Positions 4,150 through 60,459 of a stretch of DNA of 64,000 bases are shown here, piece by piece. The notes under the pieces were generated by a model, which saw only the letters and a program-made list of their open reading frames with translations, was not told the DNA's origin and did not search any database. Position numbers and translations under genes: made by a program. Location: positions 47,864,001 through 47,928,000 of the forward strand of contig CM114271.1 in the NCBI GenBank assembly GCA_050084515.1, read 5' to 3'. Source of the DNA: Blasia pusilla. Lineage: Eukaryota. Every line of letters starts with the position of its first letter. Position 1 is the stretch's first letter.

Positions 4150-4151
4150 GT

Positions 4152-4612: not shown

Positions 4613-4629
4613 AGAAACTAGTGCTAAGC

Positions 4630-5830: not shown

Positions 5831-5898
5831 TGTGCTTGCGACGTTGCCAGTACGCAGGTACTCAAAGACCACTCCATCGTCGTGAATGTCTCGGCCCC

Positions 5899-8770: not shown

Positions 8771-8899
8771 ATACTAGGAGAAGCCATGGCACGCTCTATC
8801 GCAGGTCTAGCGGGTATCTCCGCCATCCTAGCAGCCGTAGCTTGCCATGAATTTGACGTGGACAGCACGAGTATTGGCTCCAAGGGCAGGTCCATCACC

Positions 8900-14534: not shown

Positions 14535-14550
14535 CTCATTCTCTCTTTGT
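14535..14550 (-). promoter_or_regulatory. Self-priming-type primer-binding site, copy 1
   Basis: + strand ctcattctctctttgt is the reverse complement of acaaagatagaatgag (14711-14726, 1 mismatch) in B1 and of acaaagagagaatgag (3796-3811, perfect) in B2. Confidence 0.7.
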
Positions 14551-25400: not shown

Positions 25401-25789
25401 GGAGAGACAAGTTGAATGTACACAGAATGAAAAAAGTAGGGAGAGGAGAATACATGGCCGCATCATAAGCAGAGTAGAAGACAGAAACTTCACGGATGGA
25501 ATCTTACGTTGTGGCAAACTAATTCCCATCACCATGCTAAAATCGCAGACAATACAGGGCCTGGTCAAAGAGTTGATCAATGAAGGAGCTCAAGGTACCA
25601 CCATTCAGGAGACCGTGAGCAAGACTATACCAGAAGATCCATGCCTGAACTACCATAAAGCTCCTTAGGAAGAGCAGAAGTTTGCAGATATGTACGTAGG
25701 CCTAGAAATGAGTCAGACGCAAATCGTGCCTCATCACTTTGACTTCCACCAAGTTCAGTACAGAGGATAGAAAGGAGTAGGCTGCCCAT

Positions 25790-25835
<46 letters not shown>

Positions 25836-38422: not shown

Positions 38423-39967
38423 ATTATTGTACTCATTAAGTAGTGCCTGTCGTAGCCTTGCGACCATAGACCCCGCGCCCTGGTTGGACGGTGCTTGAGA
38501 CTGGGATGGGTGTAGAGAGAGAAGCAAGTGAAGAAGGTACCATATGAGAGGAGGGAGACACTCTCATATAGTGTGAGTGCTGACCAAACAACGTGTTTGT
38601 GCGGAGCTTCCAAGTGTCAACCAAGAAACTCTTCACCACACCATCTACTTTACCTGATTGGGATCCCCAATAGACATTACTTACGGTCAGCAGCTTTGGG
38701 CAATGAATCAAGCCCTCATGAATGTGTTGAACAATTCTGGTGCTACCGACTTAGCAATATCAAAGATAAGCTCTTGCTCTGTGAGTTGTGAATTTTTGCG
38801 CAGAGACCAAGTAATGACTAGAGGTTTCATCCCCATCGTCACACAAGGCGCAAGAGTTTAGTTGTGTTCCCATCCTGCTTTTCTTATGGGTCAAGGGGAT
38901 TGCTCCCGTTCTGAACTTGAACTTGAGCCGGGTTCCCAAGCAAGGGGTTCCCCATAAATAGTTCTTGATTCGCCTTCTCGGGATATACCGTCAAAAGAGA
39001 GGTCGAGACATTTTCATGGCTTCCTCCATCTTTGTTCTCGCTGTGAGCGTTTGTCCACCGCTTTGGTTATGGTATCCACGAATGCTTTCTCATCTTGCTC
39101 CCACGATTCAGGCCCTGTTGGGAGCTTCAAGCTTGCACAATCTCTTGAACCTTTTTCGCCCAAGATTTGGCACGCTTTTACGGGTTTTTTGGGTCAGGTT
39201 TTCCCCATCACCTCTTTAGGATAGGGATGGGAGTCCATTGTCTCGATTGCCTCCGCCATTTCAACTTGGCAATGTCACGTCTATCCTCCAAGGGTTCCAC
39301 ACCTAGTTCTCGATCTCACACCAACTGGGCTGTTTCGTGATGAGGTTGACATCATACCCAAACGCCTTCAGGTTATGCGACTTCAAGCCTATCCCTTTGT
39401 TTGGTGTTGGCATCCCACACTGCTGCCCCGTATTCCAGCGAGGGACGAATGGTATGCAAAATGACAGAGCGCTTTACTTCTAATGAGATATCCCGGCAGT
39501 GTAGGAATATGGACAGACCGTTCACCTTCTTGTGGCCTTTCTCAGTAGTCTTCTTAATGTGTGCATCCCACATGCAATCTTCCAAGAATTCTATGCCTAG
39601 ATAGGTGTATGTAGCCACACAAGGGATCTCTTGTTCGCCCCAGTACCACTGTTGGTCTTGGTCCTCCTCCTTGCCATTGAAAATCATCACACTGCACTTC
39701 AGTACATTTGCCTCCATGCCCCACATATCACACCAAATTTTGGTTAGGGAGATCATCTCTTGGAGTTTCTCTCCTGTTTCCTCGAGGCCACCAAAGTCAT
39801 CAGCAAACATTAGGGCAACAACAGAGATGTTGCCCACCCGTATGCCTAGTCCACTATCCTCCATTTCTTCCAATAGGGAATTCACGAAAATGTTGAAGAG
39901 AGTGGGGGAGAGCGGGCATCCTTGAGCCACTCCTTGCTTGATGTCGAATGTCCCACTCTTTTGGCCA
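38423..39967 (-). mobile_element. 5'-truncated non-LTR retrotransposon (LINE), copy 1
   Basis: RT motifs AQGCPLSPTLFNIF, LMFADD, YTYLGI (ORF 39373-39930); downstream Cys/His motif; exact 11-bp TSD TGGAATGGGTA at 38412-38422 and 39968-39978. Confidence 0.92.
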
Positions 39968-39977
39968 TGGAATGGGT

Positions 39978-39999
39978 AGAGAGAGAGAGAGAGAGAGAG
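39978..39999. repeat. (AG)11 microsatellite between the two LINE copies
   Basis: Directly visible. Confidence 0.95.
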
Positions 40000-40000
40000 T

Positions 40001-40993
40001 ACTCATTAAGTAGTGCATGTCATAGCCTTGCGACCATAGACCCCGCGTTTAGGACCATAGACCCTGATTGGACGGTGCGTGAGATTGGGATGGGTGTAGA
40101 GAGAGGAAGAGGTGAAGAAGGTATCATATGAGAGGAGGGAGACACTCTCATATAGTGTGAGTTCTGACCAAACAACGTGTTCGTGCGGAGCTTCAAAGCG
40201 TCAACCAAGAAACTCTTCACCACACCATCTACTTTATCTGATTGGGATCCCCAACAGACATTATTTACCAGTACAGCAGCTTTGGGCAATGAATCAAGGC
40301 TACTGAATGTGTTGAACAATTCTGGTGTTACCAGCTTAGCAATATCAACATATGCTCTTGCTCTGTGTTTTGTGAATTTTGCAGAGGAGACCAAGTAGTG
40401 ACTAGAGGTTTCATCCCCATCGTCACATAAGGCGCAAGATTTTAGTTGTGTTCCCATCTTGCTTTTCTTATGGCTCAAGGGGATTGCCCTCGTCTTGAAC
40501 TTGAACTTGAGCCAGATTCCCAAGCAAGGAGTTCCCCGCAAATAGTTCTTCAATTCTGCCTTCTCAAGATATACCATCAAGAGAGAGAGGTCAGACATTT
40601 TCATGGCTTCCTCCGTGTTGTTCTGTTGTGAGCGTTTACCTAATGCTTTAGTTATGGTATCCACAAATACTTTTTCATCTTGCTCCCGTAGTTCAGGCCC
40701 TACTGGGAGCTTGGATGCTTGCACAACCTCTTGAACCTTTTTTGTCCAAGATTTGGCCTACTTTACGTGTCTTCTTCGGGTCCAAGTTTTCCCCATCACC
40801 TCTTTTACAATCCAGCCATTTCAATGGGAATCCTCCAGGGTTTCCTAGTTTTGATCTCATACCAACTCAGGCTATTTGTGAGGAAGCTGACATCATACCC
40901 CGGAACACCTTCACCTCCACAGCTTCAAACCTGTCCCTTTGTTTGGTGCTCGCATCCTACAATACTACCCCATATTCCAGTGAGGGAGTGGTA
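40001..40993 (-). mobile_element. LINE copy 2, 3' part (interrupted by Gypsy copy 2)
   Basis: Similar to 38431-39454; encodes KSCALCDDGDETSSHYLV zinc motif; breaks at ...gagtGGTA|TGTTATC and resumes at 58363. Confidence 0.9.
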
Positions 40994-41473
40994 TGTTATC
41001 TCTTTTGGAGATCGGGAGATCTAGACTTAGGAGGTTGAGGTTGATGATGACTTCTTTGAGGCCCCGGGAAACCTGAGAGAGCAAGTTTCCCCTTCATTTC
41101 GGTTCATTTGGAGCCATACTGAAAAACTTACTTTTAGGTAAATATTATTTTGAGTATATGGTCAACTTTCTATTTTTGGTACGTGGCCCTTGACCTCCTA
41201 CATGAGGTCAAGAGCCAAGGAGATGACTTGGGAGCATAGGTTACCATGGAGAGAGTTTGGGAGAGGGGAGGGGTATCAGAGGGATATATCTGAGAGAGCT
41301 TGAGAGCTCATTCTCTCTTTGTTGAACCTCTTGGCATGAGGCGGCGGAGCTATGGTCTTGGTTGCCTTATGTGTATAACTCAAGCCTCTCATTAGGAGAG
41401 AGGGTTTGGTTTGACTTTGAGAGAGATATGTGAGAACTATGGTGTTGTGAGAGAGATTGGATCATATTTTACA
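40994..41473 (+). repeat. 5' terminal repeat B1 of copy 2
   Basis: Direct repeat of 57717-58234; TGTTATCTCTTTT...ATATTTTACA. Confidence 0.9.
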
Positions 41474-41486
41474 AAGAGAGAATGAG
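41471..41486 (+). promoter_or_regulatory. Self-priming-type primer-binding site, copy 2
   Basis: ACAAAGAGAGAATGAG is the perfect reverse complement of CTCATTCTCTCTTTGT at 41307-41322 inside B1; no TGG/tRNA-type PBS present. Confidence 0.72.
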
Positions 41487-42899
41487 TGAGTGAGAAAGCT
41501 TCATGGGGGAGCTCTCTGGTCACTCACTGGTTTTGCAGGTTGCGGATCCGATTCCCCATTCAGCGGTTGATGGGAGAGCTCACTTGTAAGAGCCGCTTAC
41601 TTGTGATGTTTCATTTGCCAATTTTTCGTGTGGAAGAGTGGCACGCGGAAGCGCTGCCCAATTTTTTATAGGGATTGAGTATGGTGGCGGGTTGCCCCAT
41701 GCCGATGCTCTCAAGAGTACCATGTATCTTGCTGATTTGCATTTTTACAATTTTTACATTTTCATTGGGAGAAATTAGCACGGAAGTGCTTCCGAATTTT
41801 GTGTAGGAGAAAGAGACGTTGGGCTTTACAAAAGTCCCCATCAGTTTTTACTGGAATATTCAATTTCAAATATTTTTTAATATTGTTGTACATCTTGAAG
41901 CTATGCATATTGTGCAACAAATGGTGCACAATTTGGAGTTGTGAGCAAAAATTTATGGTCAATCTTGCAAAACTGCCATTGCTAGGCGATTTTTAGGGTT
42001 AAATTGTTCAAACCCTAAACCAGCCGCCATGCCGGCGGCAACCGTCGCCATCATAGTCACCGTCAACGGTCCGCCATCAATGGTAAACTATCACCGTCAC
42101 CATCAATGGTCAACCATCACCGTCCATCGTCATCATAGTTTCATTATCAACCAGTGATGGCGGATGATCTTGGGTTATGGCGTTTGAGTTTTCATTTCAT
42201 GCTGCTATGTTGTGATTGGTAGCGGCTCGACGACGATCGAGTATCGTGGCGTGATGCCTATAGCGACAATGCACCGCCGATTGCCGCCCCGTGCTGCTCA
42301 TGGCCGCACCACATTGTCTCGATCACGGAGCCGCTCCTTCACTAAGGAGCAAAGCGTGTGAATTTCTGATTAAGGAGGGTATGTCGCCAAGTGCCGCACC
42401 CCATTCCCGAGTGTCGTGCCGTTTGTAGCCGTTCCATGCCGCCAGTCCCGCACCGGATTGTTGGACCTGCACCGCACATTGAGGAGGTTTGAGTAGCCTT
42501 AGTATGAGAGGAGTACGACTTGCCGATCGGAGGAGTTGTCTTCACGACAGAGTTGGGGTCAAGATTTGCAGTTGCCGAGCAACGACATCGATATTATTGT
42601 CAGGTTACCGATTCTAGTCTCTCACCTTGCACGAGTGAGGGATTTCTAGGTATTGGGAAGTTATTTGGGATATTGGATTTTTTGCTGATGCTAGGAGCAT
42701 CGATGATGTATGGGTTTAGGGGACATAGACGTGTGTGATATGTCCAAAGTTGAGGATGGTTTGTCGATGAGACGATAGATCAATGATTTGCCGCACCACG
42801 CTGCTTATTGCCACACAACACACGTCTCAATGAGAGAGTGTAGATTGAGTGCCGCATGTTTAGTTTGAGTGATTGAGGGATTATTCGTGAGATTTAGAG

Positions 42900-45030
42900 T
42901 GATCATGTGAGAGGGGCACGAGGGCCATCACGGCATCCTTTCGGGATTTTAAGAGGCGAGGTAGTGGACCTGAGAGTAGCTCCGGAGGGTTTACGCAGAG
43001 TGGTGCGAGGTTTCAAGGGTCTCCACGTGAGAGATCACCTCAATCTCCTTCTGTGTCATCTTCAGACGAGGGAGAGCGTGTAGAGGAGTGTGTTAGTGAT
43101 CCACCGTACACATTGAGTGGTCCTACCAGTTGGGCGTACGAGATGGACGACTGCGGTAGAGGTCTGCGTAGGTTTTCGGGTGTTGTAGGCACTATAGAGC
43201 TACATGACTTCATTGCGGAGTTTAGGAGTTGGTGTGACTCACAGCGGGCTAGGAGCTCTAGAGATTTTAACCCGTTTATAGCATGGAATGGTATGTTCCA
43301 TCATTTAGAGGGAGCGCCCATGGATGATAACCATGAGTTCTCTTATAGATATGCATAGGAGATTCAAGCATGGAAACTCTAGTATGACCCACACAATGTG
43401 TCATGGACGGAGCGGTTCTCAGATGAGGAGGAGGAGTCAGGAGAGGCTACTTCCTCTTCCATTAGTGATGTTTTAGGAGTGGTCACTCACACTGGAGCAG
43501 TTGCACTATCTAGTCGGGTTCGTCCCAGGTTCAACCCTGTGGTTAAGTTCTTCACTCAGTTGAGGGCGAGCTACCAAGGGGTATGGACAGAGAGGTTGCG
43601 GAGCATCCACGACTTTCTGAGGCGCCCGGGTTAGATTTTGCATGAGGCTTACACTCGCTTGCGCCGGTTGATCAACGTCACTCAGGGGATGACAGAGGCT
43701 CAGGCTATCCAATCATGAAACGCGATGCTGGACCGGACCCTGCGGATACAGGTGCAGGAAGGGATGCTTCTTATGAACACCTCCCCTACGATGAGAGATT
43801 TTTTAAGGACGGCCAAGAACATTGAGCGCAACATGGCAGATGAGAGTGTAGCCACTATGGGTTCTGGGTGAGAGCACTCACGATTGTCTGCACCACCAGT
43901 GCAGCAAAGTGGACTCCGAGATAGGTCGACTATGGCACCACGAGCTCACAGAGGATACCAAGAGACCGTGCCACTGAGATCTGTGCCTTCATATGTGGCT
44001 CAGCAGTAGCTGCCTACGATTACTTGTTGGTCATGTGGTGGAGCCCATCATCAGCGTGATTGCACTCGTCAAGGACATGGACGTGTGCCTCAGAATGGCC
44101 GAGGAGATGGTGTTGCACCAAGAGGTTATCAGTATGACTATTGTCAGAGGTATGATCACACACGCTCTAGGTGTTTCAGTTTACATCCGGACCGAGGGCC
44201 AGAGAGGACACCAAAGCGAGTAGCCGGTCTGGGTGGGCTAGAGATCGTGCATCAAGTGGTCCCGTTGGGGGACGAGGAGCTGGAGTTGCCCGACAGGGTG
44301 GTGGAGCTGCTCATGGAGGAGGTAGAGTCCCACCACCTAGATGCATTGAGAAAGGCGCCGGGCGTGAGGTTGGGATGGTTGCTCAGATACAAGTTATGGC
44401 ATTGAGGTTACCCGATGCCCGATCCGTGGCATCGATATCATTGGTTGGATGTGCGGTGTTGCCTAGATGGAGGCCGCCGCAATTATGACGTATGGAGCAA
44501 CCACAGACTTGGATGCACATTGAGGGGAAGCCAGGAAATAGATGAGGCTTCCTCAATCTTTCACGTTTTCCGAGGCGATGAGGACCCCATCGATGGGTCC
44601 TGATCAAAGTTCCTAGAGAGTTGGTGATGTTGTTTGTGTAGGCACGTAGGGCAATGGGAGAAGCAAGTGCGACGACTCCTATTGCTGATGCTAAGGAGGG
44701 GCATATATTGAGCACGTTGTTGGGGGCGGCCATCGTTGTGTACCGCGCTCCTTTATTTTCTGCTTCCGATGTTATGACGTCGGGAGGTACGCCCGCCGAG
44801 GTTTTTCGACTAGCCGCTACGCTATGTGAGCGTGGAGTTGGAGTTTATGCATCATGTTCAGAGGTGATTGCAGAGGAGATGATGGACCTGCCCTTGGAGC
44901 TGATGCTCGGGCCGTCCCTTTCAGATTCAAGGCAGACTGCAGCTGCTAGGATGGCCGAGATGCCCGCTAGATCCGCGATAGAGCCTTCCATGGCTTCTCC
45001 TGGTGTTGTTTTGTTGGATAACCAGGGAGA
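42900..45030 (+). pseudogene. Gag, copy 2
   Basis: RRFSGVVGTIELHDFIAEFRSWCD; knuckles TCWSCGGAHHQRDC and YDYCQRYDHTRSRC; many stops and frameshifts. Confidence 0.78.
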
Positions 45031-45039
45031 GATCTTCTA

Positions 45040-45470
45040 GTTGGTGAGTCTAGGAGGTAGATCTTTTAGTCCGTAGCGCGTCTTGTTGGATTCATGAAGG
45101 CAATCTCTAATGTTGGGGAAAGCGTCATTTAGAGGATTGGGCTTGACGAGAGCGGATATGGAGCATTGCCCATTCTGGATACAGACATCCTTGGGTGGAG
45201 TGAGTACCACACAGTATATCACCCGACAAGAGGTCGTGGTGGGGATTCACCCGGGACATCCTACAGATGAGTCCCTGGTGCGAGCCAAGGCGATAGTGAT
45301 TGATGCAAAGTCCTACGACGTCTTGGTTGGTGGAGCAGTGTTATACCCGATGGAATTTTCCCTGGATTACTGGGAGGAGGCAGTGTCCTATACACCAAGA
45401 TGGCAGTCAGGTGATGGGCGCCTCAGCTCATTACCCGTTCGATTCACAAGTGCACTAATCGAGCCAAAAG
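45040..45470 (+). pseudogene. Aspartic protease, copy 2
   Basis: VLLDS*RQSLMLGK...SYDVLVGGAVL. Confidence 0.8.
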
Positions 45471-45789
45471 AGATGGCGACCTTAGCACCATTTAGCAGTG
45501 CCATCACTTGGCCTAGTGATTTGATTGAGGGACATGTCCATACAGAGGATACTCTTGTTCTTGACATGTCTAGGGATAGGAGTGTTATGGTAACCGCATC
45601 ATTCCGTGGAGGAGAGGTGCCGTTGTGGGGCTTGAGTGAGGAGCTTCGACGTTTATCTGATGAACATGTGCAAACCGCGTGGAATAAGGCGTTTGCACCA
45701 GAGCATGACGGGTCAGAGGAACCAGAGGTAGCCAAGAGTGCTGCTATGACCCCTTTGTACACCACCTCGATTGTATGGTGCATCCCAAC

Positions 45790-46720
45790 AGAAGGGTATT
45801 CGTGTGCTGGATCTCTTTGGAGGGATCAATACTCGTTTAGCTGATGTTTTGCAGGCAGGAGTACCTATATGTTGAGATTGATAATGTTTTGAGGCGCGCT
45901 TCACTTCACCATGTGGCGTAGTGACTAGTTGTCTACGTTTGCCATTCAGGGTTACCAGAGTTCCCTATCAAAATACATTTCATTATTGGGGGCGCAGGAC
46001 TTGGAGCAGGTGGGATCCCATAGACGTGGTCATTGCTGGTTGGCCAGGTCAGGGCCAGTCAAGTGTTGGATGAGGTAGCGGGTTTTCTGACACTCATTCC
46101 AGGTTGTTTTGGGAGATGATGCGGATCTTATGACATTTTAAGGAGCATTAGCCCCTATCTCCAGCATATATTTTGGAGAATGTGCCAATTTTGGGTGATT
46201 CGAGGCCCGTGTGGTGACGAGTGCACATCAGGTACTCGCATGGATTGGCCCGGAAGTGTTGTCAGATGCGGCGAGTGTAAGTTCTAGAGCACCATGCCCG
46301 CGTCTTTGGTGGACCAACTTGGTACCACATGAGGTATTGTGGAGGGCATATGCGAGAGTGGGGTGCCCCTCTGATTTGTTGGTGGATTCTATATTGGATC
46401 TGGGCCGTCGATCACAGGCAATGAGACACAATGATCAAACGCCGTTGACTGTTGTCAACGGGATTGGCATGCCACGAGCAGCCTTTCCCACATTAGTGAG
46501 TTTTCCCGCTTCCTATGCATTCAAGGAGGCTAGACCTGGCTTGGTTTGGGATGACCAGGTACAGAGGTTGGTGGAGCCCAACGCCGATGAGCAAGAGCGA
46601 GTGATGGGACTCCCCATAGGAGTGACGGCAGTATCGTCACTATCGGAGGCATTACAAGGTCATGTCTTGGGTCAGGCGATAGACTTGAACTACTTGACAT
46701 GGATTTTTAGCTTAGGAGTA
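45790..46720 (+). pseudogene. DNMT3-type cytosine-5 methyltransferase domain, copy 2
   Basis: EGIRVLDLFGGINT; IDVVIAGWPGQGQS (Cys to Gly); AYILENVP; SSRAPCPRLWWTNL; EPNADEQERVMGLPIGVT; HVLGQAIDLNYLTWIF. Confidence 0.88.
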
Positions 46721-47265
46721 GCTAAGCAACATCATTTGAGGATGCAACAGAGCACAAAAGTTGCGTTGATGAGCCCCATGCCTACCGAGACGGTTGAGGC
46801 ACTGACTGGGGGCGAGACCCTAGGAGATTGACACACGAGGGGTGATCGATAGAGACACCCTTGGACTTCTAGGGATATTTTGCAGGTACGCCAAGAGATG
46901 ATAGCCACAGCATCGAGCATGGTTCCGGGTACTGCAGGTGAAGATGAGAGTTCTAATTTCCGAGACGGGGTTGCACCATAGCAACCACTGACATCCGCGC
47001 CAGAGAGTCCTACCGTAGTCACGATGGAGACTTGGGAGCCAGATATGGGCCCTAAGTTGACAGGAGGAGAGCGGCGTCGCAAACACCAGTTCCTTAGGAG
47101 TTATAGGAGTTGTTTTGCATTTAGTATGCATGATTTGGGTACGCTGAAGGGTTGAGGGATCCGCATTGAGTTTTCAAGTGACACGCCGATCTTTCGACGA
47201 TCCTATAGGTACAGTGACATGGAGAGGGCTTTGATTCAGAGTTGGAGCTAGGACTTGGTTGGAGT

Positions 47266-47393
47266 TGTTGTGCGCATACACATCACTACACAACATACAT
47301 CGCTGTCACCGAACACACACACAAACACGCACGATCCCATGCTAACTCATGGCATCCGAACAATGAGACAAGAAGTACTAAAATATCTCCAAT
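47266..47393 (-). repeat. Terminal repeat segment A of copy 3
   Basis: Similar to 3503-3630 and 4152-4278. Confidence 0.9.
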
Positions 47394-47687
47394 TTACTAA
47401 TATGAAGGTACTCCAAGACTACTCCATCATCATAAATATCTCGGCCACTTTTCATCTCCTCATTGGCATCGGGATCCAAGGACTCTCCACTAGACTTCGC
47501 CATCAAAGTCTCCACTCTGGCTCTCCATAGCCAACATGCCTAAATAGGCTGATGCGTGCCATCCTGGCACTGACTCCTCATCACTCTCTCCATGCCATCG
47601 AGCTCCCGTCGCATCTCGCTGACTTAGGCATGGGTTACGACTCAACCCATCTGCATCTTGGTTGAGCGTCCCAGGTCTATGTACCAT

Positions 47688-48958
47688 CTAAAAATCATAC
47701 TCCTGCAACAATAGAGCCCATCTTGCAAGCTTCCTTGTAAGCTTGTCGGACTCCATCAACCACTGAAGTGGTTGATGCTTAGTGATGATGGTAAAGGGGT
47801 TTCCGAATAAGTAACAATTGAAATGCGCGATAGCCCATACGACAGCCAAGCACTCACACTCATACGAGCTGTACTTCGCCTCTGCAGTGTTGTTTGAGCG
47901 GCTAGTGTAAGCCACCACAAACTCTCTACCCTCATCATCATGTTGGGTGAGCACCGCTCCAAACCCCAACATGCTCCAATCTGTGTGCAACTGGAAAGGA
48001 CACCCCCTAATCGATCTCCTCAAGATGGGCGCAGACGTCAACATGTCCTTGAGCAATTGAAATGCTCGCTCCTGCTCATCCCCCAACGCCACTCATGATC
48101 CACCTTGGTCAGCAAGGTCAGCGGCTTCACAATCGAACTGAATCCCTTGACGTACCACCGATAGAAGTTCGCCAATCCCATGAATGCGCAAACATGGCTC
48201 ACGTCTGTAGGGCATGGAATGCGTGAGATAGCCTCTACCTTCGTCTGATGAACACCAAGGCCCCTTGGGTATATCGTATGACCCAAGTACTCAATCTGGT
48301 CATAAAAGAACTTGCACTTTCCTGGATGTAGCTTCAGCCCATGTAATTGCAATCGTCAAAACACCTCCTCTAGATGTCGCTCATGCTCCTCAACCGTGGC
48401 GCTAAAGACTACAATGTCATCAATACAATACCTAGCAAAATCCACACCAGCCAAGATCCTATCCATGATCCTCTGGAACTCAGTCGGGGCGTTCTTTAAC
48501 CCAAATGGTAAGAACCGCCACTGATACAAACAATCCTTCCCGTGAGGGTCGATGCCCCAAAATTCCGTCTTCTGCTTGTCCTCCAATCTGATAGGCAGCT
48601 GATGGTATCCGGCTCGTAAATCCAATGAATTGAAGACCTTTGTGTGACCAATCGCATCAAAGATCTCCTCAAGGGTGGGCATGGCATACCTAACGGACTT
48701 CATCTGCCGATTGATAGGTCGGTAATCCCCACACATCCGCCTATCCATCCAGTTTCCATGCACATCCTTCTTGGCAGGCATGATAGTGGCAAATGCATAC
48801 TCCCCATGCGACATCTCTACTAGTCTTGCTCCAACCAAGTCTTGGCTCCTACTCTGAATCAGAAGCCTCTCCATATCACTATACCTGTAGGATCGTTGGA
48901 AGATCGGCGTATCACTTGAAAACTCAATGCGGATCCCCGGTCCCTTCAGCGTACCCAA
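47688..48958 (-). pseudogene. Reverse transcriptase plus RNase H, copy 3
   Basis: RRMCGDYRPIN...SLDLRAGYHQL...LPFGLKNAPTEFQR...YCIDDIVVFS...KCKF...YLGH...FMGLANFY; RNase H FQLHTDWS...ECECLAVVWAI. Confidence 0.93.
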
Positions 48959-49224
48959 TCCTCCATGCTAAATGCAAAGCAGCTCCTATAACTCCTGAGG
49001 AACTGCATGTGGAGAAGATCAGAGTTTGCACTTGGCTGCAGGAGAGTGGTCGAGTGTCGTTGTTCGAGATGGGGTTGCACCATAGCAACCACCAATATGT
49101 GCGTCGGAGAGTCCTACCATAGTCACGATGGAGACTTGGGAGCCAAATATGGGCCCTAAGTTGATAGGAGGAGAGCGGGGCCGAATACATCACTTCCTTA
49201 GGAGTTATAGGAGCTGCGTCCTCC

Positions 49225-49800
49225 GTAACACCGCATGAGGCACTAAGTTGGTCCACCATAGACGCGGGCGATGGGCTCTAGAACCTACACTCACCGCATC
49301 CAAGAATAATGCTCGGCCAATCCAGGCACGCACTTGATGAGCACTCGTCACCACCCGTGACCTAGAGTCTCCTAAGATCGGCACATTCTCTAGAATGTAG
49401 GCTGGAGAACGAGACTGGTGCTCCTGCAAGTGCCGTAAGACCCTCAACATCTCCCAAAACAACCTGGAATGAGTGTCATCCAACCCGTTGCCTCGTCCAG
49501 CGCTCGATTGGCCTTGACATGGCCAATCGGAAATGACCAAATCAATGGTCCCTACCCGCTCTAAATCATGCGCCCCCAGCAACGAAATATCCCTTGGTAG
49601 GGAACTTTGGTACCCTGTATCGCGGACGCAAACAATAAGTCGGGAAAACGTAGGCGTAATAGCGCCACATAGCGTAGTGAGACGCGCCTCGCAATATCAT
49701 CACTCTCCACATACAGTTACTATTGCACTTGCACTCCTACCTACAAAACAGCAGCTAACCCGGTGCTAATCCCTCCAAAAAGATCAAACACTCAAATACC
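49225..49800 (-). pseudogene. DNMT3-type cytosine-5 methyltransferase, motifs I-VIII, copy 3 (C-terminal part deleted)
   Basis: EGI*VFDLFGGISTG...LYVESD; ORF 49205-49582: IDLVISDWPCQGQSSAG..GLDDTHSRLFWEMLRVL...YILENVP...DAVSVGSRAHRPRLWWTNL. Confidence 0.9.
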
Positions 49801-50139
49801 CTCCTCCGGGATACACCACACAATGGGTGTGGTATCCAAGGGTGTCATCCTAGCACTCCCAGCTACCTTGAGTTCCTTAGACCCGTCACGCTCCGATGCA
49901 AACGCCTCGCTCCACGCGGTTTGCACGTGCTCATCTGCCAATCATCGAAGCTCCTCACTTGAGCCCCACATCGGCACCTCTCCTCCATGGAATGATGCGG
50001 CTACCATAACACTCCTCTCCATAGAAATGTCAAGAATGGGAGTATCCTCTATATGGATATGTCCCTCAATCAAATCACTAGGCCAAGTGATGGCACTTCT
50101 AAATGCTGCTAAGGTTGCCACCTCTCCTGGCCGTCGCTC

Positions 50140-52570
50140 AATCACTGCACATGTGAATCCAACGGGTAATGAGCTAAAGCACCCATCACCTTACTGCCAT
50201 CCCAGTAATCCAGGGAAAACCCCATTGGTTATAACACTGCTCCACCAACCAAAATGTTGTAGGACTCTGCATCAGTCACTATCGCCTTGGCTCGCACCAC
50301 GGACTCATCTGTAGGATGTCTTGGGCGAATCCTCACCATGACCTCCTGTCGGGTGATATACTGTGTGGTACTTGCTCCACCCAAGGATGGCTGAATCCGA
50401 AATGGACAACGCTCCACATCGGCTCTTGTCAATCCCAATCCTCTGAATGACGCTTTCCCCAACATCAAGGGTTGTGCTCCTGAATCCAACAAGACGCGTT
50501 ACAGACTAAAAGCTCTACCTCCGAGACTCACCAACTGGAAGACCGCTTCTTGGTTATCCAGCAACATAACACCAGGAGAAGCCATGGCACGCTCTATCGC
50601 GGGTCTAGCGGGCATCTCCGCCATCCTAGAAGCCGGAGCCTGCCATGAATCTGACGTGGACGGCCCGAGCATCCACTCCAAGGGCAAGTCCATCACCTCC
50701 TCTGCAATCACCTCTGAACGTGATGCAGGAACTCCAACTCCGCGCTCACATAGTGAAGCGGCCAGCCAAAAAGCCTCGGTGGGCGTACGCCCCAACGTCA
50801 TAACATCGGTAGTAAAAATTAAAGGAGTGCGGTACACAACGGTGGCCGCCCCCAACAACGTGCTCGACACATATCCCTCTTGAGCATTAACAATAGGAGT
50901 TGTCATACTCGCTTCTCCCATCGCCCTCCATGCTTGCACACCAACAACATCACCAACTCTCCAAGAACTCTCATCAGGACCCATCGATGGGGTCCTCATC
51001 GCCTCGGACAACTTGAAAGACTGAGGAAGCCTTCCCCTCGCTGTGGATCCAACTCTGCGGCTGCTCCATGCATCACAAATGCGGCTTCCTCCATTGGGGC
51101 AACCCCGCACATCCAACCAGGATCCTCCAGATCTGTGGCTGCTCCATATGATGTCGATGCCACCGATCCGGCATCAGGTAACCTCAATGCCATAATGGCA
51201 ATCTGCTCTTGTAGCTGTTGTATCTGAGCAGCCATCCCAGCCTCTTGTCTGGTGTCTCCCTCGGCGCGTCTAGGTGGTGGTACTCTACCTCCTCCATGGA
51301 CAACTCCACCACCGTGTCGGGCAACTCGAGCTCCTCATCCTCCTTTGACCACCAAGTGCACAATCTCTAGGCCCACCCGGACCGGCTACTCGCTCTGGTG
51401 CCCTCTCTGGCCCTGGTCCGGACATAACTCAAGATGTAAACTAAAACACCTGGCACGTGTATGACCATACCTCTGAAAATAGTCACACTGATAACCTCCT
51501 TGTGTAGCACCATCTCCGACTTCCTGTATCCTCCTTGAGCTCGTGGTGCCACAGTCGACCTATCTCGGAGTCCACGTTGCTGCACATGTAGTGCAGGCGA
51601 TCGTGACTGCTCTCGCCCACAACCCATGGTGGCTACGCTCTCCTCCACCATGTTGCGCTTAGTGTTCTCGGCGGTCCTTAAAACATCTCTCAACGTAGGG
51701 GAGTTGTTCATAAGAAGCATCCCCTCCCGCACCCGTGTCCGCAGGGTCTGGTCCAACATCGCGTGCCATGACTGGATAGCCCGAGCCTCTGTCATCCCTT
51801 GGGTGACGTTGATCAACTAGCGCAAGCAAGTGTAAGCCTTATGCAAACTCTCACCCGGGCGCCTCTAGAAGTCGTGGATGCTCTGCAACTTCTCCGTCCG
51901 TACCCCTTGGTAGCTCGCCCTTAACTCAGCAAAGAACTCAACCACGGGGTTGAATCTGGGACAAACCCGACTAAACGGTGCACTTGCTCCAATGCGAGTG
52001 ACCCCTCCTAAAACATCACTTGTGGAAGAGGAAGTAGCCTCTCTTGACTCCTCCTCCTCATCTGGGAACGGCTCCGTCCATGACACATCGTGTGGATCAT
52101 AGTAGAGCCTCCACGTCTCGATCTCACGTGCATATCTCTGAGAGAACTCATGGTAATTGTCCATTGGCGCCCCCTCTAAATGCTGGAACATAACCCGTTC
52201 CATGTTGTAAACGGATTGAACTCTCTAGAGTTCCTAGCCCGTTGGGAGTCGCACCAACTCCTAAACTCTGCTATGAAATCGTGCAACTCAATCATGCCTA
52301 CTGCACCTAAAAACCTACGCGGTCCTCTACCCCAATCGTCCATCTCGTATGCCCAACTGGTAGGACCACTCACAATGTGTGGCGATGTGCTCACAAACTC
52401 CTCTACACGCTCCCCCTCGTTTGAAGAGAACACAGAAGGGGGTCGAGATGGTCCCTCACGTGGAGACCCTCGAAACCTTGCGCCACTCTGCATAAAACCT
52501 CTAGAGCTACTCTTTGGTTCACCACCTTGCCTCTCAAAGTCCCGAACCGACGTCGTGATGACCCTTGTGC
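50140..52570 (-). pseudogene. Gag and protease, copy 3
   Basis: PRRFLGAVGMIELHDFIAEFRSWCD...; LLDSGAQPLMLGK...YNILVGG. Confidence 0.82.
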
Positions 52571-54199
52571 CCCTCTCACTCGATCACTCTCAACCTCGCG
52601 AGTAATCCCTCAATCACTCATCCCAAACATGCGGCACTCGATCTACACTCCCATTCCCTGAGACGTGTAACGTGCGGCAACAAGCGGCGTGGTGTGGTAA
52701 ATTGACCAGGCTATCATCTCATCGACAACCTACCCTCAACTCCGAACATCCCACACAGGTCTATATCCCCTAAACCACATACATAAATGATGCTCTCAAC
52801 ATCCACAGAATCCAATATCCCCAAATAAACTACCCAAATCCCAGAATCCCTCACGAGTGCAGGGTAAAGGACCAGAATGGGTAACCTCAACACATGTCGA
52901 TGTCGCTCCTCAGCAATTGCAAATCTTAACCCCAACTCAGTCGTGGAGGAAACTCCTCCAATCAGCAAGTCATACTCCTCCCACACTGACGCTGCTCAAA
53001 ACTCCTCGATAGACAATGCGGTTCCAGCGAAACGGTGCGGCGTTGCAGGCTGCACGGAACGGCTACGAACGGCACAATCCTTGATGGTGGGATGCGGCAC
53101 TCGGCGGCATATCCTCCTCAATCAAAAATAAACCCACACTCTGCTCCACAATAACGGTGGGACTCCGCGATCAAGACAGTGCGGTGCGGCCATGAGTGGC
53201 ACAGCGCGGCAATAGGCGGCGCATTGCGGCTACGGGCATCATGGCACGGTACTCGATCGTCGTTGATCGGCTACCAATCATTACATAGCATCATGAAATC
53301 AAAACTCAAACATCCTAATCAGAGGTCATCTGCCATCCCTGGTTGACGACAAAACTTCAATGACGTGGCGGCCAAAATAAAGTACGTGGTGGCGACGCAA
53401 GTCAGAGACTCAATGAACGTCGTGGAAGACCCTCCACTCCCTAATGGCGGCAATGGCAACCAAAGGGTGGACAACGGTCGAATATGGCTCTAAGCAACGT
53501 TGGGCAATAGCAACGGCCGACGGTGGCCGGTGGACGGTGGACGGTGGACCATTGACGGTGATGGTTGACCGGTGATGGTGATGACGGACCGTTGATGGTG
53601 ATTTTTGACCGTTGACCATGACCGCCGCCGGCGTGGCGGCTGGTTAAGGGTTTGAACAATTTAACCCTAAAAATCACCTAGCAATGGCAGTTTTGCAAGA
53701 TTAACCATAACTATTTACTCACAACTCCAAATTGCACACTATTTGTTGCACAACCTGCACAGCTTCACGATCTATGACGGCGTCAAAAAATATTTGGAAT
53801 TGGACATTCCAGTAAAAACAGACAGGGATTTTTGTGAAGCCCAATGTCTCTTTCTCCTACACAAAATTTGGCAGCGCTTCCGTGCTGATTTCTCCCAACC
53901 AAAATGTAAAGCCTGTAAAAATAGAAATCAGCAAGCTACATGGTGCTCCCGAGAGCACCAGTATGGAGTAACCTGCCCCCATAATCAATCCCTATCAGAA
54001 ATTGGATAGCGCTTCCGCGCGCCACTCTACCACACAAAAAATCGGAAAATGCAAAGAACAATCAAAGCAACCCTTGCTCCGGTGAGCACTCCCATGAGCC
54101 GTTGAACAGGGAACACGGTCCCCAACCTGAAAAAATAGCAAGTGACCAGTGAGCTTCCCCATGAAGCTCTTTCACTCTCTCATTCTCTCATTCTCTCTT

Positions 54200-54717
54200 T
54201 GTAAAGTAAGATCCAATCTCTCTCTACACCATCTCACACCATAGCTCTCAAAGGTGTGCACTCTCTCTCTCATGTCAAACCAAACCCACTCTCCTAATGA
54301 GAGGCTTCCGTATCACTCACAAGGCAAGGGACCATAGCTCCGCCGCCTCATGCCAAGAGGTTCAACGAATAGGGAATGAGCTCTCCAGCTCTCTCTCCTT
54401 GAGGTATATCCCTCCCCTCTCCCAAGCTCTCTCCGTGGTAACCTATTCTCCCAAGTCACCTCCTTGGCTCTTGATCTGATGTAGAAGGTCAAAGGCCACT
54501 TACCAAAAATAGAAAGTTGATCATAAACTCAAAATGGTACTTACCTAAAATAGTAAGTTTCTCAATATGGCTCCAAATGAACCGAAACGAAGTGGAAACT
54601 TGCTCTCTCAGGTTTCTCGGGGCCTCAGTAGGTCATCCTCGACCTATTGAGCTTGTCCTCCACTACTCACAAAGGTGCTCAACTAGATCTCACCGATCTA
54701 TCCTAAAAGACATGACA
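54200..54717 (-). repeat. 5' terminal repeat B1 of copy 3
   Basis: Similar to 14548-15063; inverted relative to 40994-41473 and 57717-58234. Confidence 0.9.
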
Positions 54718-54721
54718 GAGC

Positions 54722-55930
54722 AGGACTAGTGGAGATGTCGCATGGAGAGTATGGAGCTGCCACTATCATGCCCGCCAAGAAGGATGTACATGGCAACTGG
54801 ACAGATAGGCGGATGTGTGGAGATTACCGACCTATTAATCGGCACACAAAGTTCGATAGGTATGCCATGCCCATTCTTGAGGAGATCTTTGATGCTATTG
54901 GGCATGCAAAGATCTTCAGTTTGTTAGATCTTCGAGCCGGCTACAATCAGTTGCCTATCAGATTGGAGGATACGCAGAAGATGGCATTTTGGGGCATCAA
55001 TCCTCACAAGAAGGATTACTTATACCAGTGGTGGTTCTTAACATTTGGGTTAAAGAATGCCCCGGTTGAGTTTGAGAGGGTCATGGATAGGATCTTGGTA
55101 GGTCTGGATTTTGCTAGATGTTATGTTGATGACATCGTGGTCTTTAGCGCCACGATTGAGGAGCATGAGCGACATCTAGAGGAGGTGTTTTGACGATTGC
55201 AGTTACATGGGCTGAAGCTACATCCAGGCAAGTGCAAATTCTTCTACGACCAGATTGAGTACCTGGGTCATACGATATACCTAGAGGGCCTTGGTGTGCA
55301 GCAAACGAAGATAGAGGCTATTTCACGCATTCCACGCCTTACAGATGTGAGTCGAGTTCGTGCATTCATGAGATTGGCGAACTTCTATTGACGATACGTC
55401 AAGGATTTTAGCTTGATTGCAAAGCCGTTGACCTTGCTGACCAAGGTGGTTCAGAGTGGCACTAGGAGGATAAGCAAGAGAGAGCATTTCAGATGCTCAA
55501 GGACAGATTAACGTCTGCACCCATATTGAGGAGACCGAGCAGGGGGCGTCCTTTCCAATTGCATACCGACTGGAGCATGTTGGGGCTTGGAGTTGTGCTC
55601 ACCCAGCATAACAATGATGGTAGAGAGTTCGTGGTGGCTTAAGCTTGTCGCTCAAACAACGCTGCAAAGGCAAACTATAGCTTATATGAGAGTGAGTGCT
55701 TCGCTACAATATGGGCTATCGCACATTTCAGATGTTATCTATTTGGCAATCCCTCTACCAGCATTACTGATCATCAGCCACTTAAGTGGTTGATGAAGTC
55801 CAACAAGCTTATAGGGAAGCTTGCGAGGTGGGCTCTTTTGTTGTAGGAGTATGACTTCCAAGTGGTGCATAGACTTGGGATGCTCAACCATGATGGAGAT
55901 GGTTTGAGCCATAACCCATGCCCAAGTCAG
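54722..55930 (+). pseudogene. Reverse transcriptase (continued from 47130-47265) plus RNase H, copy 2
   Basis: RRMCGDYRPIN...LLDLRAGYNQL...FGLKNAP...CYVDDIVVFS; RNase H region with stops. Confidence 0.93.
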
Positions 55931-56149
55931 CGAGATTCGACTGGATGCATGGTGAGAGTGATGAGGAGTTGGTGCCAGGATGGCATGCGTCAGCCTATTT
56001 GGGCTTGTTGGCTATGGAGAGCCAGATTGCAGAGACTTTGATGGCGAGGTCTGATGGAGAGTCCTTAGATCCTGAGTCCAGTGAAGAGACGACACATGGC
56101 GAGACTTTCTAACGATGGAGTGGTCTTGGAGTACCTACGTATTGGCAAC

Positions 56150-57270
56150 GTCATAAGCACAGTGGGTGCTAGAGAGCGGGATCAGTTTTGATGGGAGGGC
56201 ATACATGTGTTGCAAGTATGAAAGGATGGTAGAGTGCGTGTAGTGCCTCATCCTTTTCCGAGAGCACGTTTGGTGCATCATGCCCACGAGGATTTGGGTC
56301 ATTTTGGAGTGAAATGGACGTACAGCTTGCTCCAGATTCAGTATTGGTGGCGGGGCATGCAGACTGACGTTTAGAAGTTTGTTGCCAGATGCATGGTGTG
56401 TGATCGAGTCAGAGCATCGTTCAATGCTCTCACTCCACATTTGCATCCACTTCCGATCATGGGTTTAGGTTATAGATGGAGTTTGGATTTTGTAGGACCT
56501 TTGCCTTTGACGGAGCACCATAGTTGTTATGTGTTGGTGATGGTCGAGCACTTCTCCGAGTGGATAGAGTTGGTTGCATTTCCTGACAAAGCAAGTGAGG
56601 GAGTAGCGTATGCCTTCCTAGATCAAGTGCTGAGTCATTACGGCGCACCAACTGAGGTGTTGACAGACCAAGGTAAAGTTTGGCGGGGAGTTTCAGGCCT
56701 TCTTTGATTAGGCACTCATCGACCATCGCACTACTTTGCGAGATTATCCTGAGGCAGATGGACTAGCGGAGCAGGTTGTCCAGACAGTGAAGAGAGGACT
56801 ACGCAAGTATGGCTTGCAGAGAGGTCACCCAGGAGATTGGGACCTTCAGTTGCCGTATTTGGCGATGGGACTCAGATTCAACAGGCAAGCATCCTTAGCG
56901 TCTTTCTCACCGTACTTGTTGCTTTATGGATGAGAGCCAGATTTACCTACGTCCATTCATCGAGATGTTGGTGAGTTGTTGAACCTTGATGACCCTGATG
57001 TACGGATGCGAGCATGTTCTCAGAGGGTTGAGTTGTTTTGGAGAGTGATGCCCATGGCGTTTGAGAACTTGGCAATTGCGCAACATTGGGATATGTTGAG
57101 GTATCTGACTATTCGGGGAGGTGGTTATCGACCTACTATCCGGAGGTTTCATTAGCAAGACTATGTCTACTTGCAATGGTATGGTTTGGAAGGACCATGT
57201 GCGTAAGTGTGCACCATGTCATCTTCCAAATATTCACGATACAATTGATCCAAGCTTAGCAGTAGTTCTT
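56150..57270 (+). pseudogene. DDE integrase, copy 2
   Basis: HHAHEDLGHFG...WW..M...RCMVCDRVRAS (HHCC zinc finger); WSLDFVGPLP; EVLTDQG; PEADGLAEQVVQTVK; FSPYLLLYG. Confidence 0.9.
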
Positions 57271-57279
57271 GCAGGCTTG

Positions 57280-57420
57280 CGATGTATGTTGTATGGTTAT
57301 GCCCGTGGTGCAACCACTATGCTAGTCTGTGATGGATGTTCGGGAGAATGGCATATGGCATGCTTGACGCCACCTCTCACTAGGGTTCCTTAGGGACAAT
57401 GGATGTGTCCTAGATATACA
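57280..57420 (+). pseudogene. PHD finger at integrase C-terminus, copy 2
   Basis: RCMLYGYARGATTMLVCDGCSGEWHMACLTPPLTRVP*GQWMCPRY. Confidence 0.85.
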
Positions 57421-57593: not shown

Positions 57594-57603
57594 TAGGGGG
57601 GCG
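57594..57603 (+). promoter_or_regulatory. Polypurine tract of copy 2
   Basis: TAGGGGGGCG immediately before A1. Confidence 0.75.
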
Positions 57604-58362
57604 ATTGGAGATATTTTGGTACTTCTTCTCTCGTTGTTTGGATGCCATGAGTTAGCATGGGATCGTGCGTGTTTGTGTATGTGTTCGATGACAGCGATGT
57701 GTATGCGCACGACAGCTATCACGTCTTTTAGGATAGATCGGTGAGATCTAATAGAGCGCCTTTGGGAGTAGTGGAGGACAGACTCAAGAGGTTAAGGATG
57801 ATGTGCTGAGGCCCCGGAAAACTTGAGAGAGCAAGTGTCCCCTTCGTTTCAACTCATTTGGAGCCATATTGAAAAACTTACTTTTTTAGGTAAATATCAT
57901 TTTGAGTATATGGTCAACTTTCTATTTTTGGTAAGTGGCCCTTGACCTCCTACATGAGGTCAAGAGCCAAGGAGGTGACTTGGGAGCATGGGTTATCATG
58001 GAGAGAGCTTGGGAGATGGGAGGGGTATACCTCAAGGAGAGAGAGCTTGAGAGCTCATTCTCTCTTTGTTGAACCTCTTGGCATGAGGCGGCGGAGCTAT
58101 GGTCTTGCTTGCCTTGTGTGTGTAACCCAAGCCTCTCAATAGGAGAGTGGGTTTGGTTTGACATTGACAGAGACATGTGAGAGTGCACACATGTGAGAAC
58201 TATGGTGTTGTGAGAGAGATTGGATCATATTTTAATTGAAGATATTTTGGTACTTCTTGTCTCGTTGTTTGGATGCCATGAGTTAGCATGGGATCGTGTG
58301 TGTTTGTATGTGTGTTTGGTGACAATGATGTATGTTGTGTAGCGATGTGTATGCGCACGACA
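57604..58362 (+). repeat. 3' terminal repeat block A1(57604-57714)-GC-B2(57717-58234)-A2(58235-58362) of copy 2
   Basis: A repeated on both sides of B; same arrangement as 3503-4278 in copy 1. Confidence 0.92.
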
Positions 58363-58582
58363 AATATGCAAAATGACAAAGTACTTTACTCTCGATGTGA
58401 TGTCCCGACAGTGTAGGAATCTTGACAAACCGTTCACCTTCTTGTGGCCTTCCTCAGTAGTCTTCTTAATGTATGCATCCCACATGCAATCTTTTGAGAA
58501 TTCTATGCCCAGATAGGTGTATGTGGGTACACAGGGGATCTTTTTTTTGCCCGAGAACCACTGTTGGTCTTGGTCCTCCTCC
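58363..58582 (-). mobile_element. LINE copy 2, 5' (RT-proximal) part
   Basis: EEDQDQQWFSGKKKIPCVPTYTYLGIEFSKDCMWDAYIKK matches LINE copy 1; followed by AGAGAGAGT (58584-58592), matching 39992-40000 (possible TSD). Confidence 0.88.
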
Positions 58583-60459
58583 AAGAGAGAGTGTGACCCC
58601 ATCTAAATAGTTGGGGCACACTGGCTATGCTCCCAGCTTCTGCTCCCGCCTTGTGAATCACTTTCGACTTTCAATTTCTATTTTGAAATTCCCTAAAGCA
58701 CCAGCACGGTTGAGAGATCATGTACATGGATCCCCGAAGACTTATGAGTTTGAGTGGTCACGTTTGAGGTCAGAATCGGACGCTGCTGCAATGCATTTCG
58801 AGGTTTTTCTGTAGATGCCGAGGATACCTCCGCGCCGGCGCCATTTTTTATTTCCTCTAATTTTGGATCACGGCTGCACCTTGAGAATATCTGTAAAAAA
58901 TATTGGATAGATGCACTTGTTTAGCCAACACACGGAAAGTGCAAGGCGACTAAACATATTGGTTTTGGGATCTATGAAGAACATGCGTGGATGGGTATAC
59001 ATTGCTTGAGAGCTATGAGAGATCGCGAAGACAATCTTTGATTGTTTCGGCGAGCTGGTTGCAATTTTTCAGGGTTCTCTTGCATACATATAGGAATCTA
59101 TGGATAAAGCGCTAGTTCACAATTGCTTAGAGGTCCTACAAGCCACCGTAGAGCATTGTTTACCACCAAGAGAAGCAAGGGAAAGTAGATTGGAAGCTTA
59201 AGTTAGATGGACACTTTGGTGTTCTCAGGATTTGTATAATCATTGGTGAGTGCCTTGTATATGTACTAAATTATTCCAAGGATCCGACATGTCCATCTCT
59301 AATCATAACGACTCTTTGAACTTGTTCTTAGCTCATCCAAAGGACATGGGCGTATGTTATTTTGCATGTGTGTGCCTTGGCATTGAATCAATCGAATATG
59401 CCACCAAGTTTTAAGCTTGTGAGCTTTGGCCTCTCCATTAGGTAGATTTCTCTCAATCCTCACCCTATGGAGAAAATTCCAAGAGAGAGATGGAATCGTC
59501 ATTTTTTTATGTAACATAAGGCTCTGACATAGGCATGGTGTCTCCAGATTCTCAATTACTCGCTCCGGAAGTTGTATGTTGTGAGTGTAATAAGTAGATT
59601 AAGAGAAAATGAGCGCCGCACATGAGACAACCTCATAATGCACTTTGTGTTATCATAAGGTAGCCATGCTATGGTCTAGGTTGCGTTCCCCTCTATATGA
59701 TGATTCAGATCTCGTAGGTGCTAGTGTGGGGTGTAGATCCGACACGTTTCTTTTGATGTTGAATGTACGAGTCGGAGTTGGGTTTCATCCAACAAATGGC
59801 ATGCAATACTCAATGCAAACGGTGTTGTCATTGACTGATCCCACTTCTCAACAATTTCTGGATGTAGTGCCGGATGAATCGTTATATTAGCAAGATTAAA
59901 AGTTCACCTCATCATCATCATAGAGAGAAGGAGAGCTTACTACTTATCCGATACAAAAAATAGATATGCAAAAATCTCTACCCATTCATTTCTCCAACCC
60001 TTGAGGGGTGGAGATGAACTAAGAGTCGTAAGAAGTTGGAGGTGTGGTTTGAGCGGACATTGGAGCCGTGGCAACAACGCTGCTCAAGGTGATTTCTTTA
60101 ACCTGGTAGGATTGAAATGTGCTTTCTTGGATCACATGGTGTTGTTGGATCTCTTTGATTGCAAACCCTTCAAGATCTTTGATTGGGGGCTGGTATTCTG
60201 GCAGGAGAGAGTAAGAGAGGAGAGTCTCTCTTAAAAAAAAGGGGCCAAATCTTTAAACTGTCTTCAAAACTTTCTTCAATTTTTGAGATTTCTCCCCTAC
60301 TTAAAATGCAAGAAAATTTTATAAGTGGGCAAAATTTTAAAAATTTTCCCTCTCGATTTTCGGAACTGCAGGAAGTGACTATAGTGTCACTACCAATGGA
60401 GGCTCTGGAGCTAGAGATGTTTGCTTTGGAGGCGAGTTGTATAGTCCCACCAACCTCTC

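Follow-up and report, generated by a model that had tools for sequence, protein, structure and literature searches.

A Ty3/gypsy-type family of Blasia pusilla with an att palindrome inside its predicted LTR and a variable, putative join of cDNA ends

The element and its surroundings

The window, the whole stretch of 64,000 nucleotides from Blasia pusilla analysed here, holds at positions 57594-58366 the 3' end of a Ty3/gypsy element of about 10 kb, an identification that is confirmed. The polypurine tract (PPT)-A-B-A order that the first-pass annotation had described there, the same as in another copy of the family (copy 1), is present. Self-BLAST of the window places the left end of the element with this 3' end at a TG at 40994, inside a LINE. 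The insertion is flanked by the target-site duplications (TSDs) GGTA (40990-40993) and AATA (58363-58366), which together show two transitions against the intact LINE copy, TGGTATGCAAAATG. The right boundary, previously set at 58362 after the second A, holds as well: the LINE picks up again past this position, and its copies at 39453-39670 and 58365-58582 match at 87% (self-BLAST, window).

All parts of the element lie on the + strand. The decayed 5' terminal repeat, B1 (40994-41471), starts with TG, has no A ahead of it and contains a self-primer predicted from complementarity, CTCATTCTCTCTTTG (41307-41321), at which the RNA would have its 5' end. B1 is adjoined by the PBS CAAAGAGAGAATGAG (41472-41486), complementary to the motif within B. 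The 5' UTR, gag-like, protease-like and C5 DNA methylase regions and the start of the RT follow at 41487-47265, with stops and frameshifts; the DNA_methylase Pfam match for the element comes from sister copies of the family. The coding region is interrupted at 47266-54717 by a nested copy of the same family on the - strand (E3), which shows TG-B1-internal and the target duplication GAGT/GAGC, and whose internal region is truncated before the integrase (IN) and joined to the start of an A, with a CA end. This nested copy interrupts the RT of another family member, in head-to-head orientation. The decayed RT, RNase H, integrase (H2C2 and rve) and PHD finger resume at 54718-57390, with Pfam scores of 3.6e-17 for RVT_1, 1.1e-10 for rve, 3.7e-10 for Integrase_H2C2 and 4.5e-5 for PHD, the RNase H score being taken from copy 1.

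The 3' end opens with the PPT TAGGGGGGCG (57594-57603), which would fix the left end of the predicted cDNA. It is followed by A1 (57604-57714), which ends in CGACA and measures 111 bp instead of the usual 128 bp, lacking 17 bp between two 8-bp direct repeats. A GC spacer (57715-57716) separates A1 from B2 (57717-58234), a repeat of 518 bp that starts with TATCAC, ends in TTTA and bears a TATA-like box at 58026-58029 and the self-primer motif at 58054-58068. The border between A1 and B2 forms an internal att palindrome, CGACA-GC-T(A/G)TCAC (57710-57722), whose motifs are those of both integrated termini. The B|A junction (58230-58240), in a form with an additional A (+A) and a probable join of two cDNA ends, leads into A2 (58235-58362), of 128 bp, whose CGACA end closes the element on the right.

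Copy 1 of the family occupies 3503-15063 on the - strand, with B1 at 15063, the A-B-A end at 4278-3503 and the TSD TAAG/TTAG. It is apparently interrupted at about 11600-14180 by an unrelated stretch of 2.6 kb, GC-rich at one end. The borders listed for both copies read back from the sequence: CGACA-GC-TATCAC and TATTTTA|ATTG here, CGACA-AC-TGTCAC (4144-4156) and TATTTT|ATTG (3624-3638, - strand) in copy 1. The LINE encodes an RT of LINE type (RVT_1, 1.9e-14) on the - strand (38429-40989 and 58363-58600) and is tandemly duplicated with a spacing of 1584 bp, the second unit being the target of the studied element. On the - strand at 22400-30900, the window also holds an intron-rich gene whose exons resemble a RING E3 ligase of the BRE1/HUB1 type, with coiled coils and a C-terminal RING.

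Layout of the family and its relatives

In the 390-Mb assembly searched, the family counts more than 1000 copies, whose integrated form reads TG-B1-PBS-internal-PPT-A1-CA-GC-TG-B2-A2-CA. The domain order over about 10.2 kb is B1-UTR-gag-methylase-RT-RH-IN-PHD-PPT-A1-B2-A2. Pfam recognises the C5 DNA methylase (PF00145), placed between the protease-like region and the RT, the RT, RNase H, the integrase H2C2 and rve domains and the PHD finger, which stands in place of a chromodomain, for which no Pfam match was found after IN. The protease is read at motif level, with no Pfam match in the window copies. The D-D(35)E triad is intact, D189, D249 and E284 each being kept in 28 of 30 aligned integrases.

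Flanks were fetched for 20 left and 20 right ends, and both ends were placed in 32 of these 40 elements, the other eight being left out as tandem or for having no second end in range. All 32 begin with a TGTCAC-like and end with a CGACA-like motif. The 4-bp TSD is exact in 23 and has at most one mismatch in 28 (permuted flanks gave a mean of 1.05 exact 4-bp matches), and no exact duplication of 3, 5 or 6 bp occurs among the 32. An early 3-bp reading of the TSD in two window copies had suggested Troyka, which was discarded on account of these 4-bp duplications; the accessible part of PMC12440569 describes Troyka from animals, with 3-bp TSDs and CG...CG ends. A PBS after the 5' repeat and a PPT before the 3' repeat are both present, the PBS adjoining B and the PPT adjoining A in every copy read, and none of 30 left ends has an A ahead of B1. 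The family is thus of the Ty3/gypsy type by its RT-RH-IN order, H2C2 domain, TG...CA ends and TSD, but its internal region is not flanked by two complete identical LTRs, the 3' end being A-B-A.

Among 30 ends picked by the sequence upstream of the PPT, 23 run on through A-B and seven stop after A. Thirty consecutive B|A joins of contig 1 comprise 19 PPT-A-B-A ends, eight solo B-A units, which resemble ordinary solo LTRs with TG...CA and a TSD, and three rearranged cases; none of the 30 runs on into B. B-int-A copies that end after A1 were seen at L063, L069, L077, L082, L088, L100, L106 and L110, most of them full-length and with an exact or near-exact TSD; they could be products of 1-LTR circles or of double cutting, or of later A-A recombination. 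A tandem dimer (L053/L107), B-int-PPT-A-att-B-PBS-int, shares one whole A+B LTR and thus presents the unpermuted LTR in the genome.

The two B repeats are clearly coupled, B1 and B2 diverging by 3.3% within and 6.3% between elements, with the own partner nearest in 16 of 22. The coupling of A1 and A2 is weak (4.6% within against 5.3% between elements; the nearest repeat is the element's own partner in 1 of 22), which counts against the main reading given below. Twenty-five copies, chosen because they carry the 17-bp deletion, have it in A1 only; L071 has it only in A2, and L023 apparently has it in both repeats. The deletion had suggested that A1 and A2 are inherited separately, an idea rejected in favour of recurrent deletion between the direct repeats, because the carriers fall in several subfamilies and because of the cases of L071 and L023.

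The layout is a real, family-wide and conserved feature. The nearest named homologs of the element proteins come from liverworts, and integrase-PHD homologs extend to Sphagnum, Klebsormidium and chlorophytes, those of Klebsormidium nitens at 50-53%; no K. nitens protein appeared among the 41 matches of a search with the methylase region. In a metagenome scan, 80 loci were kept, 61 of which were examined for repeats and 72 for motifs. A family at about 70% shows A-B-A (L189, L190, L193 and L194). Five loci with 46-50% integrase identity, one of which (L233) encodes the methylase, display the B...A-B-A layout in full, have an identical CACGACA-GC-TGTCA att and differ in their B|A joins; four have a 4-bp TSD with at most one mismatch, and L221 has no match. 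Three GC-rich loci at 42-45% show a G-run (PPT)-spacer-GACAGCTGTC arrangement, no A2 being seen in their contigs; many other loci among the 80 end early, stop after A1 or show no att, and a scan of viral contigs found no relative. The GC-rich relatives L230, L236 and L259 hold long extra coding-like sequence between PHD and PPT.

A constant and a variable junction

The two junctions of the A-B-A end behave differently. Allowing 0-12 bases between A and B, the A|B pattern has 319 matches in the genome, and the spacer is 2 bp in 100 of the 100 matches listed, as the first-pass annotation had expected of many copies. The GC, AC, GT and AT variants of the spacer are methylation-type decay (deamination) of the palindrome CAGCTG and not variation in spacing. 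The B|A pattern has 1095 exact matches, and neither pattern arises by chance, since the reversed-pattern controls for both junctions gave no match in the genome. Small indels at B|A, also expected, are found: among the first 100 of the 1095 matches, 77 read TTT-ATTGG, 20 have one additional base and three have two to four more, as counted from match coordinates with a pattern that itself favours clean joins. The junction is accordingly variable in length, as claimed, but "sloppy", the word that had been used for it, does not suit a mostly precise join with one form at 77%. The B1|PBS border shows no length change in 30 copies.

The junction forms do not appear to be inherited. A tree of 62 ends was computed with the junction left out and is poorly resolved (7 of 59 branches starred, five changes forced, five rows ungrouped). 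The +A form needs 15 changes on it, against 14.3 with shuffled labels, and is present in each subfamily; inherited junction alleles were therefore rejected. Longer joins with a pyrimidine start gave 43 matches with a pattern that by design favours the PBS type; 32 open with CA, the first PBS bases, and 11 hold at least 10 PBS bases. A second pattern found PPT remnants in 10 joins, one of them composed of 12 PBS bases and the whole PPT. When 20 remnant joins were fetched, seven lay in full PPT-A-B-A ends, where no template places PBS or PPT, 12 in solo B-A units and one in a truncated B. Part of this class may be deletions, given the 12 of 20 in solo B-A units and some inserts of 16-24 nt, above the 15-nt primer complement. 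Three internal regions are truncated and abut the exact start of A, one of them with an exact TSD; another join (L006) contains a 58-bp filler, and that of L173 (C3:28026010) a 13-bp inverted repeat resembling a primer copy folded back on itself.

The parent element has its PBS only behind B1 and its PPT only in front of A1; the remnants thus point to B|A as a join of cDNA ends, by the rules of standard LTR reverse transcription as outlined in part in PMC7175516. That the join is made anew is argued by the unclustered +A form and by the rare joins with PBS or PPT remnants. The end-ligation of the cDNA that had been proposed stands in so far as a fixed spacer and a variable, uninherited join with PBS and PPT remnants speak for a joining of cDNA ends; a ligation that precedes integration goes beyond the data, and the strict polarity described below rules out a freely opened circle.

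The 15-nt stretch that adjoins B1 can pair with a motif inside B, located about 28 nt past the TATA-like box, and the complement of the PBS was found with 0-2 mismatches in the own B1 of 21 of 21 copies (one of 22 having been left out for a misplaced boundary), as against at least three mismatches in 500 of 500 shuffles, all made from one B1. Two other families hold unrelated primer/PBS pairs in the equivalent place, each about 27-30 nt past a TATA box; the pairs measure 15 nt in L203 and L221, 16 nt in L184 and less in three more decayed copies. The arrangement resembles, and would represent, the Tf1-type self-priming PBS as portrayed in parts of PMC7175516 and PMC6317226. Since the PPT and a self-priming PBS would set the boundaries, the RT-made LTR should extend from the start of A to the end of B. 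The att palindrome GACAGCTGTC would then lie inside the reverse-transcribed LTR (A+B), its TG/CA being located 128 bp inside.

Three stranded RNA runs of one study (X22-X24) were aligned at 88% on the tandem copy, which has one PPT-A-B-PBS. Depth (L107:2081-3900) was 94-308x over IN-PHD-PPT-A-B, about 40-45 in the bin at the end of B and 1-42 on the PBS/UTR side, with reads that come from many decayed copies and edge effects that cut depth near the end of B. The transcripts are likely element-sense, and no peak of starts was seen at the predicted TSS in the three runs. The B|A join occurs in 12, 9 and 9 reads; together with the fall in depth past B, these few reads hint that most transcripts stop within B and that a smaller share continues past it. 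An invariant, transcript-encoded B|A junction, named beforehand as the outcome against end-ligation, is contradicted by the variation in length, yet this minority of RNA reads does hold the join. An RNA joint that skips PPT-A-att (L107 2223-2718) is not a splice, since it has a 4-bp GGTA microhomology.

A proposed route and its alternatives

An internal att combined with a newly made join of cDNA ends is very probably what the family displays, and a route that would lead to it can be outlined, all readings of the mechanism being drawn from decayed genomic copies. The RNA would start in B1, about 28 nt past the TATA box, and end in B2, and its 5' end would pair with the PBS behind B1 and prime itself as in Tf1. 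Established LTR chemistry on the PBS and PPT boundaries should then yield a linear cDNA, A-B-int-A-B, with ends (ATTGG... and ...TTT(A)) devoid of an att; the genomic copies, B...A-B-A, would be a circular permutation of it. The two ends would be joined anew in each cycle by a chemistry that is conjectural, and whose product is the observed junction, usually flush, with some joins keeping leftover primer/PBS or PPT bases; a 2-LTR circle is judged the most likely intermediate. On each strand of the palindrome with its 2-bp spacing, integrase would cut behind CA, leaving recessed CA-3'OH ends with 2-nt 5' overhangs, like ordinary 3'-processed ends, which would be inserted with a 4-bp stagger. 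To the reading that integrase cuts the palindrome (CA-GC-TG) within the A+B LTR, and that a join forms between the true cDNA ends, we would assign a probability of about 0.7. That the ends are joined before integration, in a circle, is slightly favoured over the other orders; circle formation first, joining after integration and an end-jump by RT would all give one and the same fossil product.

The att that was opened is the one beside the cDNA left end: PPT-A-att-B occurs 585 times in the genome and (B|A)-A-att-B twice, only one of these two (L162) continuing into B. Random opening of a 2-LTR circle was rejected on these numbers. Because a circle opened at either att gives both permutations, the simplest form of the end-ligation model put forward by the first-pass annotation is excluded, and the near absence of B-A-B-int-A obliges any circle model to make an extra assumption on timing. 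Timing is the preferred and likely reason for the polarity: the second strand transfer would at once make the left att double-stranded, and the PPT-side att would be completed last. The truncated copies joined to the start of A suggest that the left att can be used before the plus strand is complete. Strand-specific methylation by the element's own methylase is a possible alternative cause.

The same fossils could be produced without a circle if the linear cDNA were cut at its left att, both resulting ends were inserted, with integrase holding the 128-bp A piece through insertion, and host repair joined B2 to A after strand transfer. The product, the ladder of remnants and the joins of truncated internal regions to A would be equally expected, linear DNA is the proven precursor for retroviruses according to the part of PMC11054761 that treats it, and the B-int-A forms (7 of 30) would be accounted for by cutting at both atts. 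This scheme is nevertheless unlikely, since it demands a double-strand break in every insertion, yet 97 of 100 listed joins fall within 1 nt, and the polarity would still need a reason. RT itself might alternatively make the B|A join, the plus-strand 3' end jumping via one A:T pair to the minus-strand 3' end and A being copied a second time in a third strand transfer, before integrase cuts the att. End-clamping by RT is a known behaviour, one A is common to both ends in the majority join, almost every PBS-type insert finishes with an A, and in L173 sequence from the primer side is folded back in the join. The blunt +A form (20%), the retention of PPT and the 58-bp filler of L006 fit end joining equally or better, and an RT jump is considered somewhat less likely still than repair after insertion.

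Two further schemes were considered. In a cycle of the DIRS/PAT/Ngaro type, the RNA would carry A1-B2-A2 with template-encoded junctions, and a tyrosine recombinase would integrate a circle. Its split-repeat layout, as given in parts of PMC5890265 and PMC7192593, is identical, and some RNA reads hold the B|A join, but the intact DDE triad, TG...CA ends, 4-bp TSDs, PPT and PBS, as well as the B|A type that is uninherited on the tree, make such a cycle very improbable here. A search of 50 ORFs of at least 75 aa in one decayed copy gave no match to a tyrosine recombinase, in a scan that also missed RNase H and the methylase. Even less credible is an ordinary LTR consisting of B-A (TG...CA), with a 5' LTR that lost A and a PPT side that gained one by recombination or assembly error: it would account for the solo B-A units with TG...CA and TSD (8 of 30), but PBS adjoins B and PPT adjoins A in every copy read, and hundreds of copies have this fixed layout, as do other families from different samples.

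The layout appears to have been noted once before, its mechanism being undescribed. The legend of Fig. 4c in de Mendoza et al. 2018 (PMC5890265) assigns DIRS-like repeats, A-coding-B-A-B, and Gypsy domains to KnitGypsy-Dnmt3 of Klebsormidium; the accessible sections of that paper give no PBS, PPT, att, TSD, junction variation or mechanism for it. The studied element is probably kin to KnitGypsy-Dnmt3. Streptophyte Gypsy-DNMT3 elements likewise combine a Gypsy Pol with a C5 methyltransferase and DIRS-like split repeats (PMC5890265, same sections), and a bioRxiv preprint (10.64898/2026.05.21.726589) brings them up, in its accessible part, solely for the methylase. No att inside a Ty3/gypsy LTR was found described in the literature searched, a set outside which most subscription papers and Repbase Reports fall.

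As far as the available portions of PMC7175516 and PMC6317226 describe them, Tf1/sushi and Tcn1 share with the element a PBS complementary to an LTR motif just past the TATA box, the absence of a tRNA PBS and a DDE integrase; the studied element differs in lacking two full LTRs at its integrated ends, in bearing a PHD finger and not a chromodomain, and in its methylase. PAT and Ngaro DIRS elements, in the part of PMC7192593 concerned, share the repeat order and an internal copy of the end-to-start junction, but use a tyrosine recombinase, in contrast to the DDE integrase, TG...CA ends, 4-bp TSD, PPT and second variable junction found here. Cleavage of 2-LTR junctions by integrase has been reported for foamy virus (PMC1180852) and HIV-1 (PMC4372172), in the passages available, and likewise concerns a palindromic CA...TG junction embedded in continuous DNA. 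In those circles integrase cuts the very join of the two ends, a side route at best, whereas in the studied element the cut site would be template-encoded within the LTR, apart from the end join, and its use seems obligatory. As recounted in part in PMC11054761, a 1984 claim of an internal circle junction (the Panganiban-Temin model) was later replaced by the linear-precursor model.

In retroviruses and LTR retrotransposons, integrase acts on the ends that RT has produced, and circles are deemed dead ends or a reserve. Over 1000 fossil products here would place RT ends and integration ends at different sites, and if integration also proceeds from a circle, the circle-junction route once proposed for retroviruses and long dismissed would be a natural life cycle. 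It would also supply a mechanism for the layout remarked on in a single figure legend. A DDE enzyme that opens abutted TG...CA ends with a short spacer is found in the transposon circles of IS3/IS911, which are DNA transposons and take their spacer from the donor flank in each cycle; that of the studied element is a fixed GC. Whether a retroviral-type integrase can live off internal-junction cutting is testable with the 10-bp site conserved across distant families. It is an even bet that a widespread green-lineage Ty3/gypsy clade has uncoupled its RT ends from its integration ends, with obligate integration from an end-joined circle that the DDE integrase opens at a conserved, template-encoded palindrome within one particular LTR. 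In such a clade, LTR finders are predicted to mis-call the elements, with a partial 5' repeat and apparent solo LTRs that are B-A, and PBS and PPT should not touch TG/CA. The TG and CA beside the RT ends (ATTGG at the start of A, TTTA-CA at the end of B) may, speculatively, be vestiges of an ancestral att.

Like the copy nested in the studied element, family members are also nested in one another at L118, L123, L124 and L129, perhaps through targeting guided by the PHD finger.
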